Of a stretch of 6,345 nt of DNA, positions 1-6,345 are shown piece by piece (the stretch's first letter is position 1; the number at the start of each line of letters is the position of its first letter). The stretch is from a virus. The notes below the pieces were generated by a model. It saw only the letters and a list, made by a program, of their open reading frames with translations. It did no database searches and had not been told where the DNA came from. Where the stretch lies: positions 1 to 6,345 of IMG/VR virus record IMGVR_UViG_3300045988_001093; one strand, given 5' to 3'. A program made the position numbers and the translations under genes.

Positions 1-55
1 CCAACATCATCAAAAGAATCCGAAGCCTGAGCAAGAGCAAGAGCATTAGATATGA
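1..55. repeat. Terminal direct repeat, copy 1 (circular-contig assembly overlap)
   Basis: Bases 1-55 (ccaacatcatcaaaagaatccgaagcctgagcaagagcaagagcattagatatga) are identical to 6291-6345. The repeat lies inside the capsid reading frame, which stays in frame across the junction. Confidence 0.95.
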
Positions 56-416
56 ACTGCAAAGAAGTATTAGGAACAGAGGTAAGAGACTCAGAATTCT
101 TACTAGCAGAAGCAGCAGAAGTCATATAGTCCGTCATCTGAGTAAATGCTTGCGGAAGCGCACGAGAAATCAAGCGTAACGGCACAGCGTAGAAATCGTA
201 ATACTCTTTAATACGGGTATAAGCAGCTGTATTAACCGGAACAGTACGAGTAAACCAATCAGAAGAAATACGATAACTACTTCCTGGAATAGCAATTTGC
301 CAATAGCAGGGCAAAATCTCACCAACTTTAGCAGTAAAAAGTTTTTTAGAACTCAAATCAAAAGACGAGCGATGAGTATTAATTCGCGCTCGGTCAAGGG
401 GATTAAAATCACTCAT
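1..416 (-). CDS. VP1: Major capsid protein VP1/F, N-terminal part (codons 1-138 plus 2 nt). It continues across the circular junction into 6290..4985.
   Basis: This ORF is absent from the supplied track because it has no in-window stop. Hand translation from the ATG at 416-414 gives MSDFNPLDRARINTHRSSFDLSSKKLFTAKVGEILPCYWQIAIPGSSYRISSDWFTRTVPVNTAAYTRIKEYYDFYAVPLRLISRALPQAFTQMTDYMTSAASASKNSESLTSVPNTSLQFISNALALAQASDSFDDV, with no stop down to base 1. 416 nt + 1306 nt (6290..4985) = 1722 nt = 574 codons, so it joins the 4985..6253 ORF in frame. The FDLS...FTA..G.L.P....PG...R..P....R....F..VP.RL pattern is the familiar N-terminus of Microviridae capsid proteins (recognised from memory). Confidence 0.88.
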   Translation of the reverse strand, partial: MSDFNPLDRARINTHRSSFDLSSKKLFTAKVGEILPCYWQIAIPGSSYRISSDWFTRTVPVNTAAYTRIKEYYDFYAVPLRLISRALPQAFTQMTDYMTSAASASKNSESLTSVPNTSLQFISNALALAQASDSFDDV

Positions 417-432
417 AATCAATTAAATTAAA

Positions 433-2112
433 TTAGACCATACGGTTAAATATATTATTAGAATCATTAAGCTTCTTATGTTTAATCATATCACGACAGA
501 ATGTCGCACTACGGTACCGGAGCTGGTCAAGAAGCTGAATCGTCTCACATGAAACATTCGACAAGACATCCGTCTCGCACCCGCTCTGAGGCAACGCAAA
601 CATACAATCTGATATAAACGGGTTTTTGGCTCGAAGATTGAATGCATCTCGTAGATTTTCATAATCTTTTTTCTTTTCATAATCTATACCTGTTTTAATG
701 ATAAAACTAATGCGACCGGAATAAGCACTAATATCAGAGCCGAAGAGAGGGAGATGCCAATTACGGAAGAATTTATAGACATATAAGAACAACCTATATA
801 ACTTATTAATAAAAGATTCAATATCGACATTACTAGAACAGTTAACAAACCTAGTAAGACACCGAGAAGCATGTAATATAATTTTGTCATCATCAGTAAG
901 AATAGAATTAACCTCGAGATAATTATAATAGGCACGAACAAGACTCAAAATTGAGTCTTGTTTGTAATCAACGAATCCGAACTTAGCAATTCTCTGCGGT
1001 GTTCGGTGAACAGCGAGAAGAATTCGAGCAATCGAAGTAGCATCGTCATTGCGAGCAGACGAGAACCGCGGCAATAAGGTACGGATATACGACAAGGGTG
1101 GAGTGGAGCGAACACTAACGCCAGCGAAGTTGTAGATTCTTCCATTAACGACAGAATCGATTTTTTTTTCAATTTGCGCATAAGGGTCTTCGTCTTCCAC
1201 GAAAGAGCAACCCTTCTCAAAGAATCCGACAGATGCTCTAGATTTGGGTCTAAATGCGCGGCATGTTCTATATAATAAGGGAGCAGAGCACAAGCTATTA
1301 ACGTAGCTCGCAACGTATGAACAAGCTCCACCAGCGGAACGTTGGAAATCTGAACGACCGAGTTTCCAACTCTTATCGTGACAGTGTCGTAAAACTTGGG
1401 CGACTTCGTCCGAGTTTGTGAATAATAAGAGATGATAATGCGGGCGGAAATGTACGGGTCCGTACTCACCCACAGCGTAGAAATGTAACGTTTCATAAGA
1501 ACCTAAACTTTGGAATAAATGTTTACGTAAACGTTTGATATAATTCTGGATATCAACGTAATTTAAGAAGGGAATAAGATTATCACGACCATATTGTGCA
1601 GAAGCGGGATAATCCGTTTTATCAACAGCCTGCGTCTTACTGATAAAACCACGAATAGCATCCATACTAAGAAACCAATTATCCTTAACAGGTACATATT
1701 CCTTAATTTCACGGTCAAACGGCACAGTGCCTTGAACCTGTTCGAAGAATATATGACGCAAGACGGAGTTATCATCACATTGATACTCGGAAACAGGGAT
1801 ATATCGATGATACTCATTGCCAAAATGGATATCTCCCGAAATGCCTAAAGCATCCTCATAATCACTATGGAGAACCTTACAAGACATAAGAGGAATATGG
1901 ACATTGTCATACGTAAGAGTAACAAAATAAGAATACTTGAAAGCACTTCCAGCGGTCTTCACGCGCATGGACGCTTTTTTAGCTTTCTTATGGATACAGT
2001 AATCACATTGACCGCAATCTACAGCAATACGCGCACCAGTGTATTTATTCGTAATAAACGAACGATGTTGACAATGGTCAACAGCTTTAAACAAATCAGG
2101 AGAAAATTTCAT
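433..2112 (-). CDS. VP4: Replication initiation protein VP4 (HUH rolling-circle endonuclease, phiX174 gpA-like), 559 aa
   Basis: The ORF track protein carries all hallmark motifs. These are an N-terminal CGQCDYC zinc-finger-like box, motif I FVTLTY (nt 1909-1926), the KRLRK helix followed by FYAVGEYG, motif II HYHLLLF (HYH = nt 1432-1440), and the tyrosine motif YVASYV (nt 1303-1317). The ATG at 2112 lies 2 nt after the upstream stop. The TAA at 433-435 lies 16 nt before the VP1 ATG. Confidence 0.95.
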   Translation of the reverse strand: MKFSPDLFKAVDHCQHRSFITNKYTGARIAVDCGQCDYCIHKKAKKASMRVKTAGSAFKYSYFVTLTYDNVHIPLMSCKVLHSDYEDALGISGDIHFGNEYHRYIPVSEYQCDDNSVLRHIFFEQVQGTVPFDREIKEYVPVKDNWFLSMDAIRGFISKTQAVDKTDYPASAQYGRDNLIPFLNYVDIQNYIKRLRKHLFQSLGSYETLHFYAVGEYGPVHFRPHYHLLLFTNSDEVAQVLRHCHDKSWKLGRSDFQRSAGGACSYVASYVNSLCSAPLLYRTCRAFRPKSRASVGFFEKGCSFVEDEDPYAQIEKKIDSVVNGRIYNFAGVSVRSTPPLSYIRTLLPRFSSARNDDATSIARILLAVHRTPQRIAKFGFVDYKQDSILSLVRAYYNYLEVNSILTDDDKIILHASRCLTRFVNCSSNVDIESFINKLYRLFLYVYKFFRNWHLPLFGSDISAYSGRISFIIKTGIDYEKKKDYENLRDAFNLRAKNPFISDCMFALPQSGCETDVLSNVSCETIQLLDQLRYRSATFCRDMIKHKKLNDSNNIFNRMV

Positions 2113-2114
2113 AA

Positions 2115-2423
2115 TTACTTGCGTTTATCAATCACTTGGTGACGATTCCGTTTACCAAATGAAATATGAATAAATGCAGGATACAATATCAGTTGGTCAA
2201 ATACATGAACATTATCCGAGTAACTATGAATATGCTCAAGCAACCGACCATAAGTAGTAGAGCCATAAGGCTTAATATCAATAGCCTCTCCAAACAAATG
2301 CTGAGAATTAGGAACACCACCAGCAGCCTTATTGTCAGCAATGGAGCGCTTAGCACTTGTTATCGTAAAATGCAAGTTAAAAGATAACAAATGGTCAAGA
2401 AAACCCATAAGAGCACCATTCAT
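2115..2423 (-). CDS. Zinc D,D- or L,D-peptidase, M15 family (Peptidase_M15_3/4-like); putative cell-wall hydrolase / endolysin, 102 aa
   Basis: ITSAKRSIADNKAAGGVPNSQHLFGEAIDI matches the M15 core SGYRS...N...GG...SxHxxGxAxDI, giving candidate zinc ligands H42 and D49. A C-terminal FIHISF supplies a candidate third ligand, H86. The protein is compact and lacks the usual 30 or so N-terminal residues. Its ATG overlaps the stop of the upstream peptide (ATGA at 2420-2423). Confidence 0.78.
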   Translation of the reverse strand: MNGALMGFLDHLLSFNLHFTITSAKRSIADNKAAGGVPNSQHLFGEAIDIKPYGSTTYGRLLEHIHSYSDNVHVFDQLILYPAFIHISFGKRNRHQVIDKRK

Positions 2424-2503
2424 AATCCAATAGCGTTAAGGATGTAACCAAGAGCGGCAGAAACAGCGCCAATCACAATTTTCCAAATATTATTGTTTTT
2501 CAT
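2420..2503 (-). CDS. 27-aa single-pass membrane peptide (MKNNNIWKIVIGAVSAALGYILNAIGL); holin-like candidate
   Basis: This is the ATG-initiated 3' part of the tracked ORF 2420..2698. It has a polar MKNNN head followed by about 22 hydrophobic or small residues. Its TGA stop overlaps the peptidase ATG. The upstream L-rich part of the tracked ORF is the off-frame reading of the 65-aa ORF and is not believed. Confidence 0.45.
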   Translation of the reverse strand: MKNNNIWKIVIGAVSAALGYILNAIGL

Positions 2504-2687
2504 TGCTTTGAGTTTTAAGTTCAACAAAATTATTTTCTTCTCTAATCGGGTCCACAACAACAATAAGACCCAAAGAAGAAATTCGGTCAGAATAAAGTTC
2601 AAGAACATTAAGAGAATCAACAACAAAAGGCGAAACAGCATCGCGACCAGAAGCTTTTTCTTTAACTGAAATAATAAATTTCTGCAT
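2490..2687 (-). CDS. Hypothetical 65-aa protein (MQKFIISVKEKASGRDAVSPFVVDSLNVLELYSDRISSLGLIVVVDPIREENNFVELKTQSNEKQ)
   Basis: It uses the internal ATG of tracked ORF 2490..2768, whose TTG start at 2768 lies inside the predicted promoter. The codons are strongly T-ending (GCT TCT GGT GAT GTT CCT CTT AAT ATT), as in VP1, which supports this frame over the overlapping L-rich frame. It is the first ORF after promoter P2, with a leader of about 45 nt. I recognise no family. Confidence 0.55.
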   Translation of the reverse strand: MQKFIISVKEKASGRDAVSPFVVDSLNVLELYSDRISSLGLIVVVDPIREENNFVELKTQSNEKQ

Positions 2688-2738
2688 AATTGTAACAAAG
2701 TTTAAAACATTAATAATAATTGTAACTTCTACACGATG

Positions 2739-2769
2739 CAAAGGTATGAGTTTTTTTCGTAGTTCCAAA
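2739..2769 (-). promoter_or_regulatory. Bacteroides-type promoter P2 (TTTG-N19-TACCTTTG)
   Basis: The minus strand reads ATTTGGAACTACGAAAAAAACTCATACCTTTGCATCG. The -33 TTTG sits at 2769->2766, followed by exactly 19 nt, then the -7 TAnnTTTG (TACCTTTG) at 2746->2739. This is a perfect match to the published Bacteroides fragilis sigma-AB consensus. It is positioned to drive ORF65, the TM peptide, the M15 peptidase, VP4 and genes beyond. Confidence 0.6.
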
Positions 2770-2922
2770 TAGTTTCTTTAAAAATTGTGGGGAGAGGACC
2801 ATTTATGATAGAGTGTGAGTTGTGCGTTTATGGACAAGAAGACGGAGAAATTGAGATGATAACTCAATTTTGCTTCGCACACAACTAGGGGCTTCGCTTA
2901 ATTAACAAGTGGATGTATACAG

Positions 2923-3111
2923 GGGTGTATAGGCACGGCAAGGCAGGGACTGACTTGCCTTTGCGCACCTGCGTGCTAAAATACCGGAGCGGGGCGCTCC
3001 TATAAGGAAGTCGCTCCGCTCCGTTTTTCGACCAAGCCCTACGCGGGCGGCGGGTGTATATCGCTCAAACGCCGCGATGGGCTTCTAGTCCTGAAGGATG
3101 CTATTACACCC
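2923..3111. other. GC-rich structured island (candidate ssDNA origin element, structured RNA or foreign insertion)
   Basis: By hand count, 2931-3090 has 98/160 G+C (61%) and 3121-3280 has 50/160 (31%). The helices are nested and do not cross:
- P1: 2923-2932 with 3101-3111 (GGGTGTATAG / CTAtTACACCC, 10 bp with one bulge).
- P2: 2938-2945 with 2956-2964.
- P3: 2965-2968 with 2973-2976.
- P4: 2985-3000 with 3006-3023.
- P5: 3034-3053 with 3061-3084.
No long ORF is present on either strand. Confidence 0.6.
2985..3028. terminator. Long GC hairpin with flanking A/T tracts; candidate bidirectional intrinsic terminator (helix P4 of the island)
   Basis: CGGAGCGGGGCGCTCC-TATAA-GGAAGTCGCTCCGCTCCG forms about 16 bp, with 8 contiguous Watson-Crick pairs at the base, one G-T pair and two 1-nt bulges. 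On the plus strand TTTTT follows directly (3024-3028). On the minus strand GTATTTTA follows, and AAAA precedes the hairpin at 2978-2981. The plus orientation is the more canonical one, which is odd because all genes are on the minus strand. Confidence 0.5.
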
Positions 3112-3256
3112 GAGGATAGAGAGAATAACTGTAAGAACAATCCAATAGAGAAGGGGATGTTTGCCATAGATTAATCCATTCAACACAGTTTTCCAATGTT
3201 CCAACCTTTGAAAAAACGACTTTACGTCCAAGTTTGATTCTTAATTCGTAATACAT
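3104..3256 (-). CDS. Possible 50-aa ORF (MYYELRIKLGRKVVFSKVGTLENCVEWINLWQTSPSLLDCSYSYSLYPRV)
   Basis: Hand-translated and below the track length cutoff. The ATG at 3256-3254 sits in a TATTATG context like the other genes, about 30 nt downstream of promoter-like P1. The TAA at 3106-3104 lies in the closing stem of the GC island. Composition is not low-complexity, but the T3 codon bias is weaker than in the sure genes. I recognise no family. Confidence 0.3.
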   Translation of the reverse strand: MYYELRIKLGRKVVFSKVGTLENCVEWINLWQTSPSLLDCSYSYSLYPRV

Positions 3257-3288
3257 AATATATAAGTTTTTGGTTCTTTTCTGTATTA

Positions 3289-3322
3289 CAAAGATACGAA
3301 ATAGTTTGCAAAGTACAACAAA
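3289..3322 (-). promoter_or_regulatory. Bacteroides-type promoter candidate P1 (TTTG-N22-TATCTTTG)
   Basis: The minus strand has a perfect -7 octamer TATCTTTG (3296->3289). The nearest suitably placed TTTG (3322->3319) is 22 nt upstream, one more than the 19-21 consensus spacing. It lies just downstream of the VP2 terminator and upstream of the 50-aa ORF. Confidence 0.4.
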
Positions 3323-3363
3323 GTTGGAGTTAAAGAGTGTTTAGTAAATGTTAATAAATGTAC

Positions 3364-3395
3364 AAAAAAATTTTCCCCCACTTCGTGGGGGAAAG
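3364..3395 (-). terminator. Rho-independent terminator after VP2
   Basis: The minus strand reads C-TTTCCCCCAC-GAA-GTGGGGGAAA-A-TTTTTTT, a perfect 10-bp stem with a 3-nt loop followed by a T7 run. It begins 24 nt after the VP2 stop codon. There is no T-run in the plus orientation, so it is unidirectional. Confidence 0.8.
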
Positions 3396-3418
3396 AGAAT
3401 AGATTTAGAATCCTGAAT

Positions 3419-4534
3419 CTATTTACGACCAATAGAATTACCAATACCTTGAAATATACGAGTGCCATAATCTACAGCATTCCGTAATTCATAAGAATCA
3501 ACGTCCTTCTGTTTATGCTTAGAAGACCATTTATAATAATCACGAAGAGCCTTATCCTTAGAATACTCAATATTCTTAAGGACATTGGTATTTTTCGAAT
3601 CCCATAATGAAGATAGACCTCGGGCACGGTTAGACTGAATATTTGCATAAATCAAAGAATCAGCGGTCTGAGAAGCAATCCTATTGTTAATTCGAATACC
3701 ATTGGTTTCAGCGGCAGTCTTAACAGCCTTAGCCATTTCAGATTTATATTGGGCTTCCGTAAGAGAACCTTGCGAGTACAGATTAGCAAGTGTCTGACCC
3801 TTAATAAATAGATCAGCTTGTTGTTGTTCATCCAGATATTTATTAAGTACCTGTTGGGCTTCAGAGTCAAGCAGAATCTGTGCCTCTTGAGCCGACGTAA
3901 GACGACCTGCAAATTCCATATTCCTAAGCTCCTGATATTCTTTAGACTGGTCCAATAGAGCAGAACGTCTACCAGTAGAAGCGTTCCAATAACCAGACTG
4001 ACCAACACCGATATTACGATAATTGGTATCACCAAGAATCTGGTTGATACGGTAGGGGGTAAGAGCAGCATTCTGTTCCGCGTTAATCATCGAAGCACGA
4101 GCCTGAGCCATAGAAGCGAGAGCAGAACCAACATCAGAGAAATCAGGACGGAATGCCTGCAAACTAGGAGGAGAACCAGCAGAAGCAGCAGCACCACCAG
4201 AAGCAGGAGATTTAGAAACACCAGCACCAGTAGAAGAACCGATAAATGGATTAAGACCTCGGGAAATCATAGCCTGAGGAGAATTATACTCATTATTCTT
4301 ATTCCACATCTGTTCTTGCCAATCACGCTGAAGTTGAGCCTGTTCAGCATTAAACTTATTATTCATCTCAGCAATCTCCTTGGAAGTCTCATTGGTTTTA
4401 TTCTGAGACGAAGCACCAATAGCATTACCAGCCAAAGAAGCACCAGCAGCAATAATACCACCAAGGACAAGCGGAGCAATATGCTTTTCGGAATGCCCCA
4501 TTAAGGGGCTTTCTCCAATATCATAAAACCTCAT
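3419..4534 (-). CDS. VP2: Minor capsid / DNA pilot protein VP2 (phiX174 gpH-like), 371 aa
   Basis: It has a Gly/Ala-rich hydrophobic N-terminus (IAPLVLGGIIAAGASLAGNAIGA). Next comes NNKFNAEQAQLQRDWQEQMWNKNNEYNSPQAMISRGLNP, which matches the FNA.EAQ..RDWQE.M.N......Q......GLNP signature I associate with microvirus VP2 proteins. After that comes a G/A/S/P-rich linker and a Q/A-rich, probably coiled-coil, C-terminal half. The ATG at 4534 overlaps the upstream TGA (ATGA). An alternative ATG at 4501 (MGHSEK...) follows a GGAGAA. Confidence 0.8.
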   Translation of the reverse strand: MRFYDIGESPLMGHSEKHIAPLVLGGIIAAGASLAGNAIGASSQNKTNETSKEIAEMNNKFNAEQAQLQRDWQEQMWNKNNEYNSPQAMISRGLNPFIGSSTGAGVSKSPASGGAAASAGSPPSLQAFRPDFSDVGSALASMAQARASMINAEQNAALTPYRINQILGDTNYRNIGVGQSGYWNASTGRRSALLDQSKEYQELRNMEFAGRLTSAQEAQILLDSEAQQVLNKYLDEQQQADLFIKGQTLANLYSQGSLTEAQYKSEMAKAVKTAAETNGIRINNRIASQTADSLIYANIQSNRARGLSSLWDSKNTNVLKNIEYSKDKALRDYYKWSSKHKQKDVDSYELRNAVDYGTRIFQGIGNSIGRK

Positions 4535-4974
4535 TGAGCAGAAGCGTCAGGGGCGGGCGACGAATCGGGCGCTGACTTTTGCTCGGCCAACATAGCTTCG
4601 GCATAAGCCGTCAATTCAGATTTTTCACTAGCCAATTGCTGAAGAACAGCCTGACGTTCAGACATTGTCTGACAATGCCGTGAAATAACACATTTAAACC
4701 GCTCCTCATCAGTCATACCATCCATAACAGTAGACTGAGTAGGATGCATCTGTGCAATAATATTCTGAACATTCATATCACCAAGTAAATTACGGTATTT
4801 TTCCTGATTCAGTAAGATTTGAGTCATATCAGCCTGAATCAAATCACCATCAGGAGTTTCGTCATACATAACCGAATCATAAACAGAAGGACTATAACAC
4901 GGATTGTCCTCAACACTAACAGGAACATATTCATCCTGAATAAAATCAAGGTTTTTATAAGCAAAATCTCTCAT
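4531..4974 (-). CDS. Hypothetical 147-aa acidic protein between VP1 and VP2 (possible internal scaffolding protein, judged by size and position only)
   Basis: Tracked ORF 4531..4980 begins TTG-ATT-ATG, so I place the start at the ATG at 4974 (MRDFAYKNLDF...). That is 10 nt after the VP1 TAA, and the upstream context is nearly identical to that of VP1. Codons are T3-biased and the stop overlaps the VP2 start. The function is a guess. Confidence 0.75.
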   Translation of the reverse strand: MRDFAYKNLDFIQDEYVPVSVEDNPCYSPSVYDSVMYDETPDGDLIQADMTQILLNQEKYRNLLGDMNVQNIIAQMHPTQSTVMDGMTDEERFKCVISRHCQTMSERQAVLQQLASEKSELTAYAEAMLAEQKSAPDSSPAPDASAQ

Positions 4975-4984
4975 AATCAATCAA

Positions 4985-6345
4985 TTAAAAAGGTAAACCA
5001 TTTCTATCCAAATTTTGAACAGCATATACTTGAAAATTAACATTACACAACAACTGGTCATAAGAAACACCTGAGTTAGTGCCAGAGACCTGAGGCAGAA
5101 ATATAGGGTTCAATTGTTGAGGGCGAACTTTCATAGACTGATAAGTAAAAGTACCAGAAGAAGTCAGCACATCCCAACCATCAAGAGGAGCAGACCACGA
5201 ATGATAGGAAAGACCTTTACGGAAACCAGCGTGAACGGTATCAATAGAAGACTTCCACTGCCAATAGCGAAGATTATATCCTAAAGAACCATTAGCGACA
5301 CGGGATTTATCATTAATAAGATTAAGAGCAGGAACAGGTTGCATACCAAGTTGGTCAAATGCAGGCTGCGGAAAATCAGAAACGGAAGTAACAGTTAACT
5401 GAGGAGCTTGACCAGACACATCCCAGTCAAGCATAGGTACAGCATGATAAACGCACATAATTACCTGATGTTCTGCGCCACAAGAATAGGTAATAGTATG
5501 ACCTGAATTAGAGCCAATACCTTTACCAGCAATACTAGCCTGTGATTCTTGCGTATCAAGATTAGTATTAACCACTTCATTAATATTAATAACATTGGAC
5601 CAGCCTCCAATATAATGAGAATGATTACCCATATACTCGGGAGCCTTAATACCAAACTGGGCAGCCATCTGGTCTGAATAATCCTTACTACTGAATTGTA
5701 CTACTTCTTTCCAACGCTGGAGATATTCGGTTGCACGAATTGAGAGGGCGGAAAGGTCAGAATTAAGAGTAACAGGAGTAGTAGCAGAAACAGATTCCGT
5801 CATAGAAACATCACCTGAACCTACTTTCTGATATAAATAAGAATTATTACGGGCGTCAGAAACAATACGGTTAGAAATATAAGCAGGAGCAAACGAAGAC
5901 GGCAAAACAGCTACCGAACCATACTGAGAATTAGGAAGCATGCCCATGAAATAATCTTTAGGATAGTTCGCATAACGAAGTTTAAACATATCAGGAGACA
6001 AGGCTAATTGTGACTTACCATCCCAATAATCTACATTATAAGAATAAGCGAGATGTTTTTCCCATTGGGAATTGCTGAAAAAATCATAGTAAATTTTCTG
6101 ATAAGCAAGCAAAGGAAGAAGATTCACAACCTGCGAAACTCTATAAACCAATGGATTCTTATCATCAGTAGAAGGAGAAAAACCTAAATAAGCTTTAGAA
6201 ATCGCGGCTTTAGAAGTATTATCCGATGCAATAAACGAACCATAACTTAACAAATCAAGAATTTTACAAGCACCATAGGAAAACGGAAGTCCAACATCAT
6301 CAAAAGAATCCGAAGCCTGAGCAAGAGCAAGAGCATTAGATATGA
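4985..6345 (-). CDS. VP1: Major capsid protein VP1/F, C-terminal part (unique sequence 4985..6290; 6291..6345 duplicates 1..55)
   Basis: The tracked ORF 4985..6253 begins at a TTG only because the caller needed a start codon. The frame is open all the way to the window edge and continues at 416..1. This is a large protein with a Microviridae capsid-like N-terminus (see feature 1..416). The TAA stop is at 4985-4987. The joined length is 573 aa. Confidence 0.9.
   Translation of the reverse strand, partial: ISNALALAQASDSFDDVGLPFSYGACKILDLLSYGSFIASDNTSKAAISKAYLGFSPSTDDKNPLVYRVSQVVNLLPLLAYQKIYYDFFSNSQWEKHLAYSYNVDYWDGKSQLALSPDMFKLRYANYPKDYFMGMLPNSQYGSVAVLPSSFAPAYISNRIVSDARNNSYLYQKVGSGDVSMTESVSATTPVTLNSDLSALSIRATEYLQRWKEVVQFSSKDYSDQMAAQFGIKAPEYMGNHSHYIGGWSNVININEVVNTNLDTQESQASIAGKGIGSNSGHTITYSCGAEHQVIMCVYHAVPMLDWDVSGQAPQLTVTSVSDFPQPAFDQLGMQPVPALNLINDKSRVANGSLGYNLRYWQWKSSIDTVHAGFRKGLSYHSWSAPLDGWDVLTSSGTFTYQSMKVRPQQLNPIFLPQVSGTNSGVSYDQLLCNVNFQVYAVQNLDRNGLPF
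6291..6345. repeat. Terminal direct repeat, copy 2 (circular-contig assembly overlap)
   Basis: Identical to bases 1-55. Confidence 0.95.

Follow-up and report, generated by a model that had tools for sequence, protein, structure and literature searches.

To our knowledge, the phiX174/G4 group is the only one in which experiments have established how the incoming single strand is primed. The G4 signal comprises ~140 nucleotides (nt) with three hairpins, and the complementary-strand origin (oric) of G4, St-1, and alpha3 is located between genes F and G of phages that infect E. coli. GCGNAGC and GCGNNAGC are "extraordinarily stable" DNA mini-hairpins, which bind the single-stranded DNA (ssDNA)-binding protein SSB poorly; GCGAAAGC is found at the primase start site of the G4 complementary-strand origin and GCGTTAGC is present in St-1 and alpha3 (PMC13037366, a 2026 review by their discoverer). 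Similar motifs include CCGAAGG in RSF1010 ssiA, recognized by the RepB' primase, and the GGA and GAA loops of the ssDNA hairpin promoters of phage N4 (PMC13037366). Moreover, other uncultured microviruses have conserved ssDNA hairpins upstream of Rep that were read as the complementary-strand origin (PMC9865509). Here, we analyzed a stretch of 6,345 nt (IMG/VR record IMGVR_UViG_3300045988_001093, positions 1 to 6,345; hereafter, the window), which is a complete microvirus genome of ~6.3 kb with every recognizable gene on the minus strand. Between its pilot gene and its Rep operon, we found a conserved non-coding element of ~288 nt, of which we found no description in the literature searched. 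The element is probably an ssDNA origin region of the viral strand, in which a cluster of SSB-resistant hairpins would direct host priming of the complementary strand.

Like the oric sites of G4, St-1, and alpha3, the element is a non-coding hairpin cluster on the presumed viral strand of a microvirus, and it carries three conserved coding-strand copies of the GCGAAAGC/GCGNAGC-type SSB-resistant mini-hairpins (PMC13037366). In contrast to these sites, with which it shares no detectable sequence similarity, it consists of ~11 helices including the three mini-hairpins, lies next to the Rep operon, and would direct priming in an apparent Bacteroidota host. A second likeness is to the plasmid single-strand origins ssoA, ssoT, ssoU, and ssoW and to ssiA and ssiB of RSF1010, which are structured, orientation-fixed non-coding cassettes of 150-300 nt beside Rep or the double-strand origin. 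These origins are exchangeable between related replicons, as is the GC-rich half of the element (module B), which is swapped in five relatives (L134, L148, L143, L155, and L306), and CCGAAGG of ssiA is the second most common variant of the first mini-hairpin, MH1. However, the element has neither the CS-6 motif of ssoA (TAGCGW) nor sequence homology to these origins, and it resides in a phage rather than a plasmid. The phiX174 primosome assembly site (n'/PriA) and the hairpins of roodoodooviruses and reekeekeeviruses are likewise conserved, intergenic, and read as the start of the minus strand (PMC9865509), but they are made of one or two hairpins of 13-64 nt, as compared to the 11 covarying helices found here. 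Last, the intergenic region of M13/f1, with its adjacent minus origin, plus origin, and packaging signal, resembles the element in that the latter may also join a priming signal to a Rep-proximal module; M13/f1 belongs to another virus family, and we found no host-type -33/-7 or -35/-10 promoter mimic in the element. As an origin, the element is thus a large, composite form of a known type of signal that is homologous to none of the G4-type origins or plasmid single-strand origins.

The first-pass annotation of the window had drawn attention to an anomalous GC content, and the values bear this out, with 0.613 at 2931-3090 and 0.312 at 3121-3280 as compared to 0.393 genome-wide. It delimited a structured island at 2923-3111, which captures the core of the conserved element; however, the alignments indicate that this island is the GC-rich half of a larger unit at 2811-3098, whose Rep-proximal part (module A, 2811-2908) had been overlooked. 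A blastn search (word size 11) with 2760-3290 as a query against 50,697 phage records matched 34 microvirus GenBank records with 74-90% identity over about 2810 to about 3100, among them 31 "Dulem viruses" from lemur samples, two dog-faeces records, and one record of human vaginal origin. IMG/VR homologues were gathered by two exact-motif scans and then by an nhmmer profile built from alignment A1, which matches the window at 2811-3098 with E = 3.5e-93. The full-length element was found in about 131 microvirus-sized IMG/VR contigs, giving 130 distinct sequences that are 67-91% identical to the window. Its position is invariably between the pilot gene and the block of small ORF (open reading frame), peptidase, and Rep genes, its orientation is constant, and there is one copy per genome. 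The element is an intergenic unit upstream of the Rep-operon promoter.

This distribution bears directly on the origin of the island. Its out-of-line GC content and a 10/11-nt inverted repeat of the window (2923-2932/3101-3111), which had been read as a closing stem, would fit an insertion resembling a miniature inverted-repeat transposable element or an assembly chimera. However, the 3' arm of the repeat falls beyond the end of the conserved block and has a different sequence in relatives, and the 5' arm is one of the copies of a direct repeat of 9 nt; relatives do not share the inverted repeat, and the proposed closing stem had to be abandoned. Neither the site nor the orientation of the single-copy element changes between the 34 GenBank and about 130 IMG/VR assemblies (lemur, dog, and human samples) that carry it, so that it recurs in more than 130 independent assemblies. 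Furthermore, a motif scan of bacterial and archaeal genome contigs with GTGTGAGTTNNNCGKTTAT gave 120 chance matches, and none of these loci holds the element. Because the element keeps a constant position and orientation across relatives, both a chimera and a sporadic insertion are ruled out, and we regard their residual probability as negligible.

Because a stop-free frame across the element is present in just 5 of the 130 homologues, the element is non-coding, in agreement with the earlier remark that no ORF explains it. That it is neither a tRNA nor a member of a known RNA family was also confirmed, since cmscan against Rfam (both strands, E≤1) gave no match for the element and ARAGORN detected no tRNA or tmRNA gene. 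A hammerhead-like CUGANGA sequence at 3091-3097 is not conserved. In PP511392.1 (L005, Dulem virus 242), a 108-aa "hypothetical protein" (XCD03858.1, positions 589-915) is annotated right over the element; the coding sequence is very likely spurious because so few homologues are open and the variation is pairwise compensatory. In practical terms, at least one GenBank record thus gives the region of the element a mistaken hypothetical-protein annotation. A few IMG/VR contigs (L028, L124/L295, L315, L032, L053, and L122) carry the element twice or divided over their ends, about one genome length apart; these are longer-than-unit or permuted assemblies of circular genomes and not true duplications.

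The structure of the element is conserved. Folded as RNA, 2923-3111 is far more stable than dinucleotide-shuffled controls on both strands, as had been predicted (plus strand, -96.1 kcal/mol, z = -6.4; minus strand, -84.9 kcal/mol, z = -4.85), and 2811-3098 folded as DNA gives z = -5.2 for the minus strand and -5.5 for the plus strand. The helices were identified on the alignment of the 130 sequences by the consensus of minimum free energy (MFE) folds of each sequence, mutual information, and explicit pair counts. Dedicated pair counting was then based on an independent MAFFT alignment of 109 sequences, with two further 2-bp hairpins added. In this alignment, 97.9% of 5138 cells of the 48 pairs in 11 helices are paired, and double-sided, compensatory changes are found at 20 pairs (273 cells). 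None of 500 shuffled controls reached the observed pairing and compensation, and slid controls were only 23-43% paired. The search for homologues and covariation suggested in the first-pass annotation therefore gave a clear answer: the conserved structure is real and under selection.

Of the five helices originally proposed, two stand and three had to be corrected. The hairpin at 2938-2964 corresponds to P3, where compensatory changes include the pair 2941/2955 (AU 67, GC 63) and the pair 2942/2954 (GC 120, AU 7; 130 sequences); the lower percentage of pairing of P3 in the 109-sequence count reflects misalignment of its variable loop by MAFFT. Similarly, the mini-hairpin at 2965-2976 is P4, with 2967/2974 being AU in 84 and GC in 25 of the 109 sequences; the helix is 100% paired, and most of its minus-strand loops have the form c(GNAG)g or c(GGA)g. 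In contrast, only the inner 5 bp of the 16-bp hairpin at 2985-3023 covary (P5a; pair 2987/2999 is GC in 69 and AU in 34 of the 109 sequences), while its outer stem shows 46-77 A.C oppositions among the 130 homologues. The 51-nt hairpin at 3034-3084 does contain covarying helices, but these are three small ones, namely 3036-3039/3045-3048, 3042-3044/3050-3052, and P6b. The first two overlap, yet each is 100% paired and shows compensatory changes (CG/GC and CG/UA in one; CG/GC/UA in the other), and in P6b the pair 3063/3075 is GC in 90, AU in 12, and CG in 5 of the 109 sequences. A 26-nt stretch at 3036-3061 (CCCTACGCGGGCGGCGGGTGTATATC on the plus strand) is almost invariant in all homologues, although two covarying mini-helices overlap within it. 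No other part of the element is as constrained, and none of the explanations considered here accounts for this.

Within module A, three pairs of P1 carry compensatory changes (GC/CG; UA/AU/CG/GC; GC/AU), as do seven of the eight stem pairs of P2, whose loop conserves GTTATC. The single-stranded junction segment between P1 and P2 has a nearly invariant core (2825-2839), followed by a variable part (2840-2847) that is pyrimidine-rich on the minus strand. Its TTGTCYATAAACG is kept in all 109 sequences, and the alignment revealed no covarying partner for it. The segment is a candidate template for priming or for nicking by Rep. At the other end of the element, no supported pairing partner was found for the conserved tail. 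The GGRTGTATA repeats are spaced by 12 and 129 nt and are kept in relatives, except for the first copy, which lies in a segment missing in 17 of the 130 sequences; that they serve as protein-binding sites is speculation.

The MFE folds of single sequences were correct only in part. The alignment opposes two stems that they contain, a long P5 stem and 3042-3046/3072-3076. Some helices can form on one strand only. On the plus strand, these are 2885-2894/3079-3088, 3010-3013/3029-3032, and 2914-2920/2925-2931, and on the minus strand, the long P5 and 2933-2935/2962-2964. Because they show only one-sided transitions, they were not counted for either strand; the long-range, G.U-rich pairing 2885-2894/3079-3088 was rejected as it also conflicts with the second mini-hairpin, MH2. 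RNAalifold on the raw MAFFT alignment returned a poor, partly spurious consensus on both strands, and a helix search permitting both G.U and A.C gave mostly noise; neither was used.

The strand on which the element is likely to act is indicated by its mini-hairpins. Inside the element, the minus strand has three copies of GCGNAGC, and the genome has only one more when both strands are considered. The pattern N-CG-N-AG-N' with a Watson-Crick outer pair is found in 127 of the 130 sequences at MH1 and in all 130 at MH2 and at MH3. At MH2, the middle loop base alone varies (A or G), apart from one sequence with ACGAAGT, a compensatory change; at MH3, variation is again confined to the middle loop base, with GCGAAGC in 14 of 130. 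The outer pair of MH1 covaries (GC 60, CG 36, and AU 9 in the 109 sequences). Its ungapped variants on the minus strand are GCGAAGC (41), CCGAAGG (30), GCGAAAGC (12), and ACGAAGT (9), followed by the rarer CCGGAGG (5), CCGAAAGG (2), and CCGTAAGG (2), plus a few exceptions. Across 112 genomes, the density of the motif was 10.0 per kb on the coding strand of the element, as compared to 0.89 on the opposite strand and 0.37-0.56 elsewhere. On the plus strand, the loops of the mini-hairpins read UNC or UUUC, which match no known motif. Judged by sequence, known loop motifs fit the coding strand only, and it is the loops, not the helices, that discriminate between the strands. A two-base-pair stem closed by a triloop is stable as DNA but unstable as RNA. 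That wobble pairs hardly occur is likewise a trait more typical of DNA.

The packaged strand is the coding strand in all characterized Microviridae, and by analogy we presume that the minus strand of the window, which has the same sense as all of its genes, is packaged. The coding strand is T-rich (T 35.2%, A 25.5%), as is the virion strand of phiX174. We favor an ssDNA origin because it is the coding strand that carries the d(GNA)/d(GNNA) mini-hairpins, the covariation is almost purely of the Watson-Crick type, and the element occupies a fixed non-coding site upstream of the Rep operon. In this scenario, host SSB would coat the genome when the ssDNA enters the cell, and the ~11 short, very stable hairpins, including the three d(GCGNAGC) mini-hairpins, would remain folded and SSB-free. 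The folded region would then be the site where a host priming enzyme lays the RNA primer for the complementary strand, leading to conversion of the genome to the double-stranded replicative form. The enzyme would most likely be a primase acting as at the G4 origin and less likely RNA polymerase or a PriA-type primosome. Module B would be swapped in the manner of the exchangeable single-strand origin cassettes of rolling-circle plasmids. A complementary-strand origin or primosome signal on the packaged strand had been among the options listed at first, and it is the one that the evidence favors, with its function deduced from sequence. Microviruses dominate the diversity of ssDNA phages in animal guts, and the element represents a concrete candidate for their priming signal. 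Its candidate parts, the three mini-hairpins, the three-way junction, and the swappable GC-rich cassette, can be defined and are accessible to deletion, swapping, and in vitro work. The d(GNA) mini-hairpin motif is under clear natural selection here, which would extend its link to ssDNA replication starts beyond enterobacterial phages.

Several observations weigh against this assignment. The presumed identity of the packaged strand is taken from a rule for known Microviridae; helices of Watson-Crick pairs can arise as readily on one strand as on the other, and in RNA too; and wobble statistics fail to tell the strands apart, as G.U and A.C are equally rare in the supported helices of the 130-sequence alignment, with G.T or G.U in about 12 of the 5138 cells for the minus strand. 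With 288 nt, the element is two to five times as long as known microvirus priming signals. It shows no blastn similarity to the G4 or phiX origins, nor any blastn hit to Bullavirinae, among the 50,697 phage records, TAGCGW is absent from 2811-3098 on either strand, and neither the Bacteroidota promoter consensus TTTG-N17-23-TAnnTTTG nor its TAnnTTTG part is found within the element. Weak (9/12) sigma-70-like matches are present on the plus strand at 2831-2860 and 2955-2982, and there is a conserved near-match, TAnnTTAG, on the minus strand at 2977-2984. Furthermore, when closed by C-G, GAAA and GUAA are also loops of the classic GNRA tetraloop type of RNA. The element immediately adjoins the pilot stop codon in several relatives, a promoter of the window (3322-3289) faces it, and the element is probably transcribed at least by read-through; an RNA role, as a 3' untranslated region (UTR) or terminator, could exist beside or instead of a role as DNA.

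The last points lead to the view that the element acts as a sense-strand RNA, either the 3' UTR of the pilot or late transcript or a read-through leader of the Rep operon, where it might terminate transcription, block 3' exonucleases, mark a processing site, or work as a regulatory switch. In MG945488, MG945572, and OP549867, the element directly follows the pilot stop codon, and in the window the Bacteroidota-type promoter at 3322-3289 points toward it. P5a with the GGTATTTTAG after it has a terminator-like score, a switch could arise from the overlapping helices of 3036-3052 and from P5a competing with the long P5 stem, GAAA and GUAA loops are compatible with GNRA tetraloops, and the intergenic hairpins of phiX174 double as terminators. 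However, ~85% of the MH1 copies and all those of MH2 and MH3 are triloops on two-base-pair stems, which are unstable as RNA, and G.U in about 0.2% of cells is atypically low for a structured RNA. There is also no Rfam match at E≤1, 288 nt with 11 helices far exceeds the needs of termination, and a separate promoter downstream of the element serves the next operon. We therefore consider a sense RNA unlikely as the function of the element. An antisense non-coding RNA transcribed from the plus strand, with for instance a regulatory or anti-defense role, appears more doubtful by far. The plus strand does fold better as RNA by ~12 kcal/mol (mean MFE of -109 as compared to -97 kcal/mol in the 130 homologues), its unpaired segments are A-rich, and the three G.U-rich helices listed above are possible on this strand only. 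Yet these helices show no compensatory change and one of them conflicts with MH2, no Bacteroidota-type promoter is present on the plus strand genome-wide, no plus-strand terminator was found, the UNC triloops correspond to no known motif, and Rfam again gave no match. It is also unlikely, to about the degree of a sense RNA, that the element, instead of being a DNA signal, represents a new class of ~290-nt structured non-coding RNA of this clade of gut microviruses infecting Bacteroidota. Such an RNA could be of the sense strand and serve regulation or processing, with 3036-3052 and 2985-3023 acting as a conformational switch, or it could be an antisense RNA acting on host or defense functions.

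The element is modular, as comparison of the sequences of relatives indicates. Every one of the 80 IMG/VR genomes closest to the window by Rep (73-90% amino-acid identity) carries module A, including those without the GC-rich half. The five relatives with a swapped module B match positions 2 to about 100 of the nhmmer profile only; they keep 2811-2908 and then continue into unrelated sequence, although the Rep proteins of L134, L155, and L306 are 82-84% identical to that of the window. One relative (L129) has a hybrid arrangement in which the P5/MH3 part is kept, and the junction near 2908 carries insertions of 30-140 nt in relatives. The replacement sequences of L134, L143, L155, and L129 have in common a short conserved block, ACGWACTTTCGGAAAAA, with CGAAAG in its coding strand. 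L134 and L155 additionally have a different long hairpin in place of the GC-rich half.

Persistence of module A with Rep raises the question of whether the element, or possibly module A alone, is the origin of the viral (plus) strand, at which Rep binds and nicks. The nick would be placed in the P2 loop or in the single-stranded TCTTGTCYATAAACG, the three TATACAYCC repeats would be Rep-binding iterons, and the hairpins would extrude from the supercoiled replicative form. Consistent with this, module A is retained even without its GC-rich partner and carries the invariant single-stranded TCTTGTCYATAAACG, the conserved loop and strongly covarying stem of P2 follow the pattern of rolling-circle origin hairpins, the 9-nt repeats are direct and three in number, and the Rep operon promoter is located a short way downstream of the element. 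On the other hand, no nick-site consensus is known for the clade, the phiX174 origin sits within gene A, and the Rep relatives, sampled only at ≥73% identity, are too close to reveal co-variation between Rep and module A. The sole phiX-like motif is a gapped one, CAACTAG..TTAATTAAC..GTATAGGCAC at 2880-2936 of the plus strand, which resembles the phiX174 origin sequence, CAACTTGATATTAATAACACTATAGACCAC. It is probably fortuitous and was set aside because it lies on the non-coding strand and is broken by a mini-hairpin. A plus-strand origin thus has a small probability as the explanation of the element and would be compatible with priming of the complementary strand at the same site; it is speculation that module A may also carry a Rep recognition or nicking site. 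A further resemblance, to the XerC arm of dif (GGTGCGCAAA on the minus strand), was rejected as partial, since the rest of the dif site is missing.

The positions of the element, its parts, and the surrounding features are listed in Table 1. TTTG-N17-23-TAnnTTTG is the established promoter consensus of Bacteroides. It has only two full matches genome-wide, both on the coding strand, which suggests, on sequence grounds, that the host is one of the Bacteroidota and that the genome is transcribed as two or three operons; the TAnnTTTG of the Rep-operon promoter is kept in relatives.

Table 1. Coordinates in the window of the element, its parts, and neighboring features (bp, base pairs; aa, amino acids).
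Feature	Position	Strand	Description
Whole conserved non-coding element	2811-3098 (~288 nt)	minus (presumed functional strand)	delimited by nhmmer, blastn, and alignments
Module A, Rep-proximal	2811-2908 (98 nt, 41% GC)	minus	three-way junction P1/MH1/P2 and conserved single-stranded segment, then MH2 and TTAATTAA
Module B, GC-rich half	2909-3098	minus	
P1	2818-2824/2880-2886	minus	7-bp helix closing module A; 99.9% of cells paired
Single-stranded junction segment	2825-2847	minus	reads CTCCGTCT-TCTTGTCCATAAACG
P2 hairpin	2848-2855/2863-2870	minus	8-bp stem; 7-nt loop 2856-2862, TTATCAT on minus strand
MH1 mini-hairpin	2872-2878	minus	d(GCGAAGC)
MH2 mini-hairpin	2891-2897	minus	d(GCGAAGC)
Direct repeats	2911-2919, 2923-2931, 3052-3060		GGRTGTATA (TATACAYCC on minus strand)
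P3 hairpin	2937-2942/2954-2959	minus	plus variable inner part and loop
P4 hairpin	2965-2968/2973-2976	minus	4 bp
P5a hairpin	2986-2990/2996-3000	minus	5 bp, then GGTATTTTAG, weak terminator-like tail
MH3 mini-hairpin	3013-3019	minus	d(GCGGAGC)
Two overlapping small helices	3036-3039/3045-3048 and 3042-3044/3050-3052	minus	compact pseudoknot or alternative hairpins
P6b hairpin	3060-3064/3074-3078	minus	5 bp; 100% paired
Conserved tail	3079-3098		TGGGCTTCTAGTCCTGAAGG on plus strand; marks pilot-gene side of element
Rep gene	433-2112	minus	
Peptidase gene	2115-2423	minus	
Small ORF	about 2420-2698	minus	
Bacteroidota-type promoter	2739-2769	minus	TTTG-N19-TACCTTTG; ~40 nt beyond element on minus strand; serves small-ORF/peptidase/Rep operon
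50-aa ORF	3104-3256	minus	common to Dulem viruses 254 and 255 (hypothetical protein there)
60-aa ORF	3286-3468		carried by additional DNA at ~3100-3370
Second Bacteroidota-type promoter	3289-3322	minus	precedes 50-aa ORF found in only some relatives; points into element
Strong intrinsic terminator	3372-3394	minus	TTTCCCCCAC-GAA-GTGGGGGAAA, 10-bp stem with 6 GC pairs, then ATTTTTTTGT
Pilot protein gene	3419-4534	minus	
149-aa ORF	4531-4980	minus	
Major capsid protein gene	4985-6253	minus	

In the window, additional DNA with its own promoter (~3100-3370) separates the pilot gene from the element; MG945488, MG945572, and OP549867 are without it. The two small ORFs at 3104-3256 and 3286-3468 have no match in PHROG. 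The strong intrinsic terminator lies ~25 nt past the pilot stop codon and upstream of the element on the minus strand, where its loop is another GAA triloop closed by C-G.

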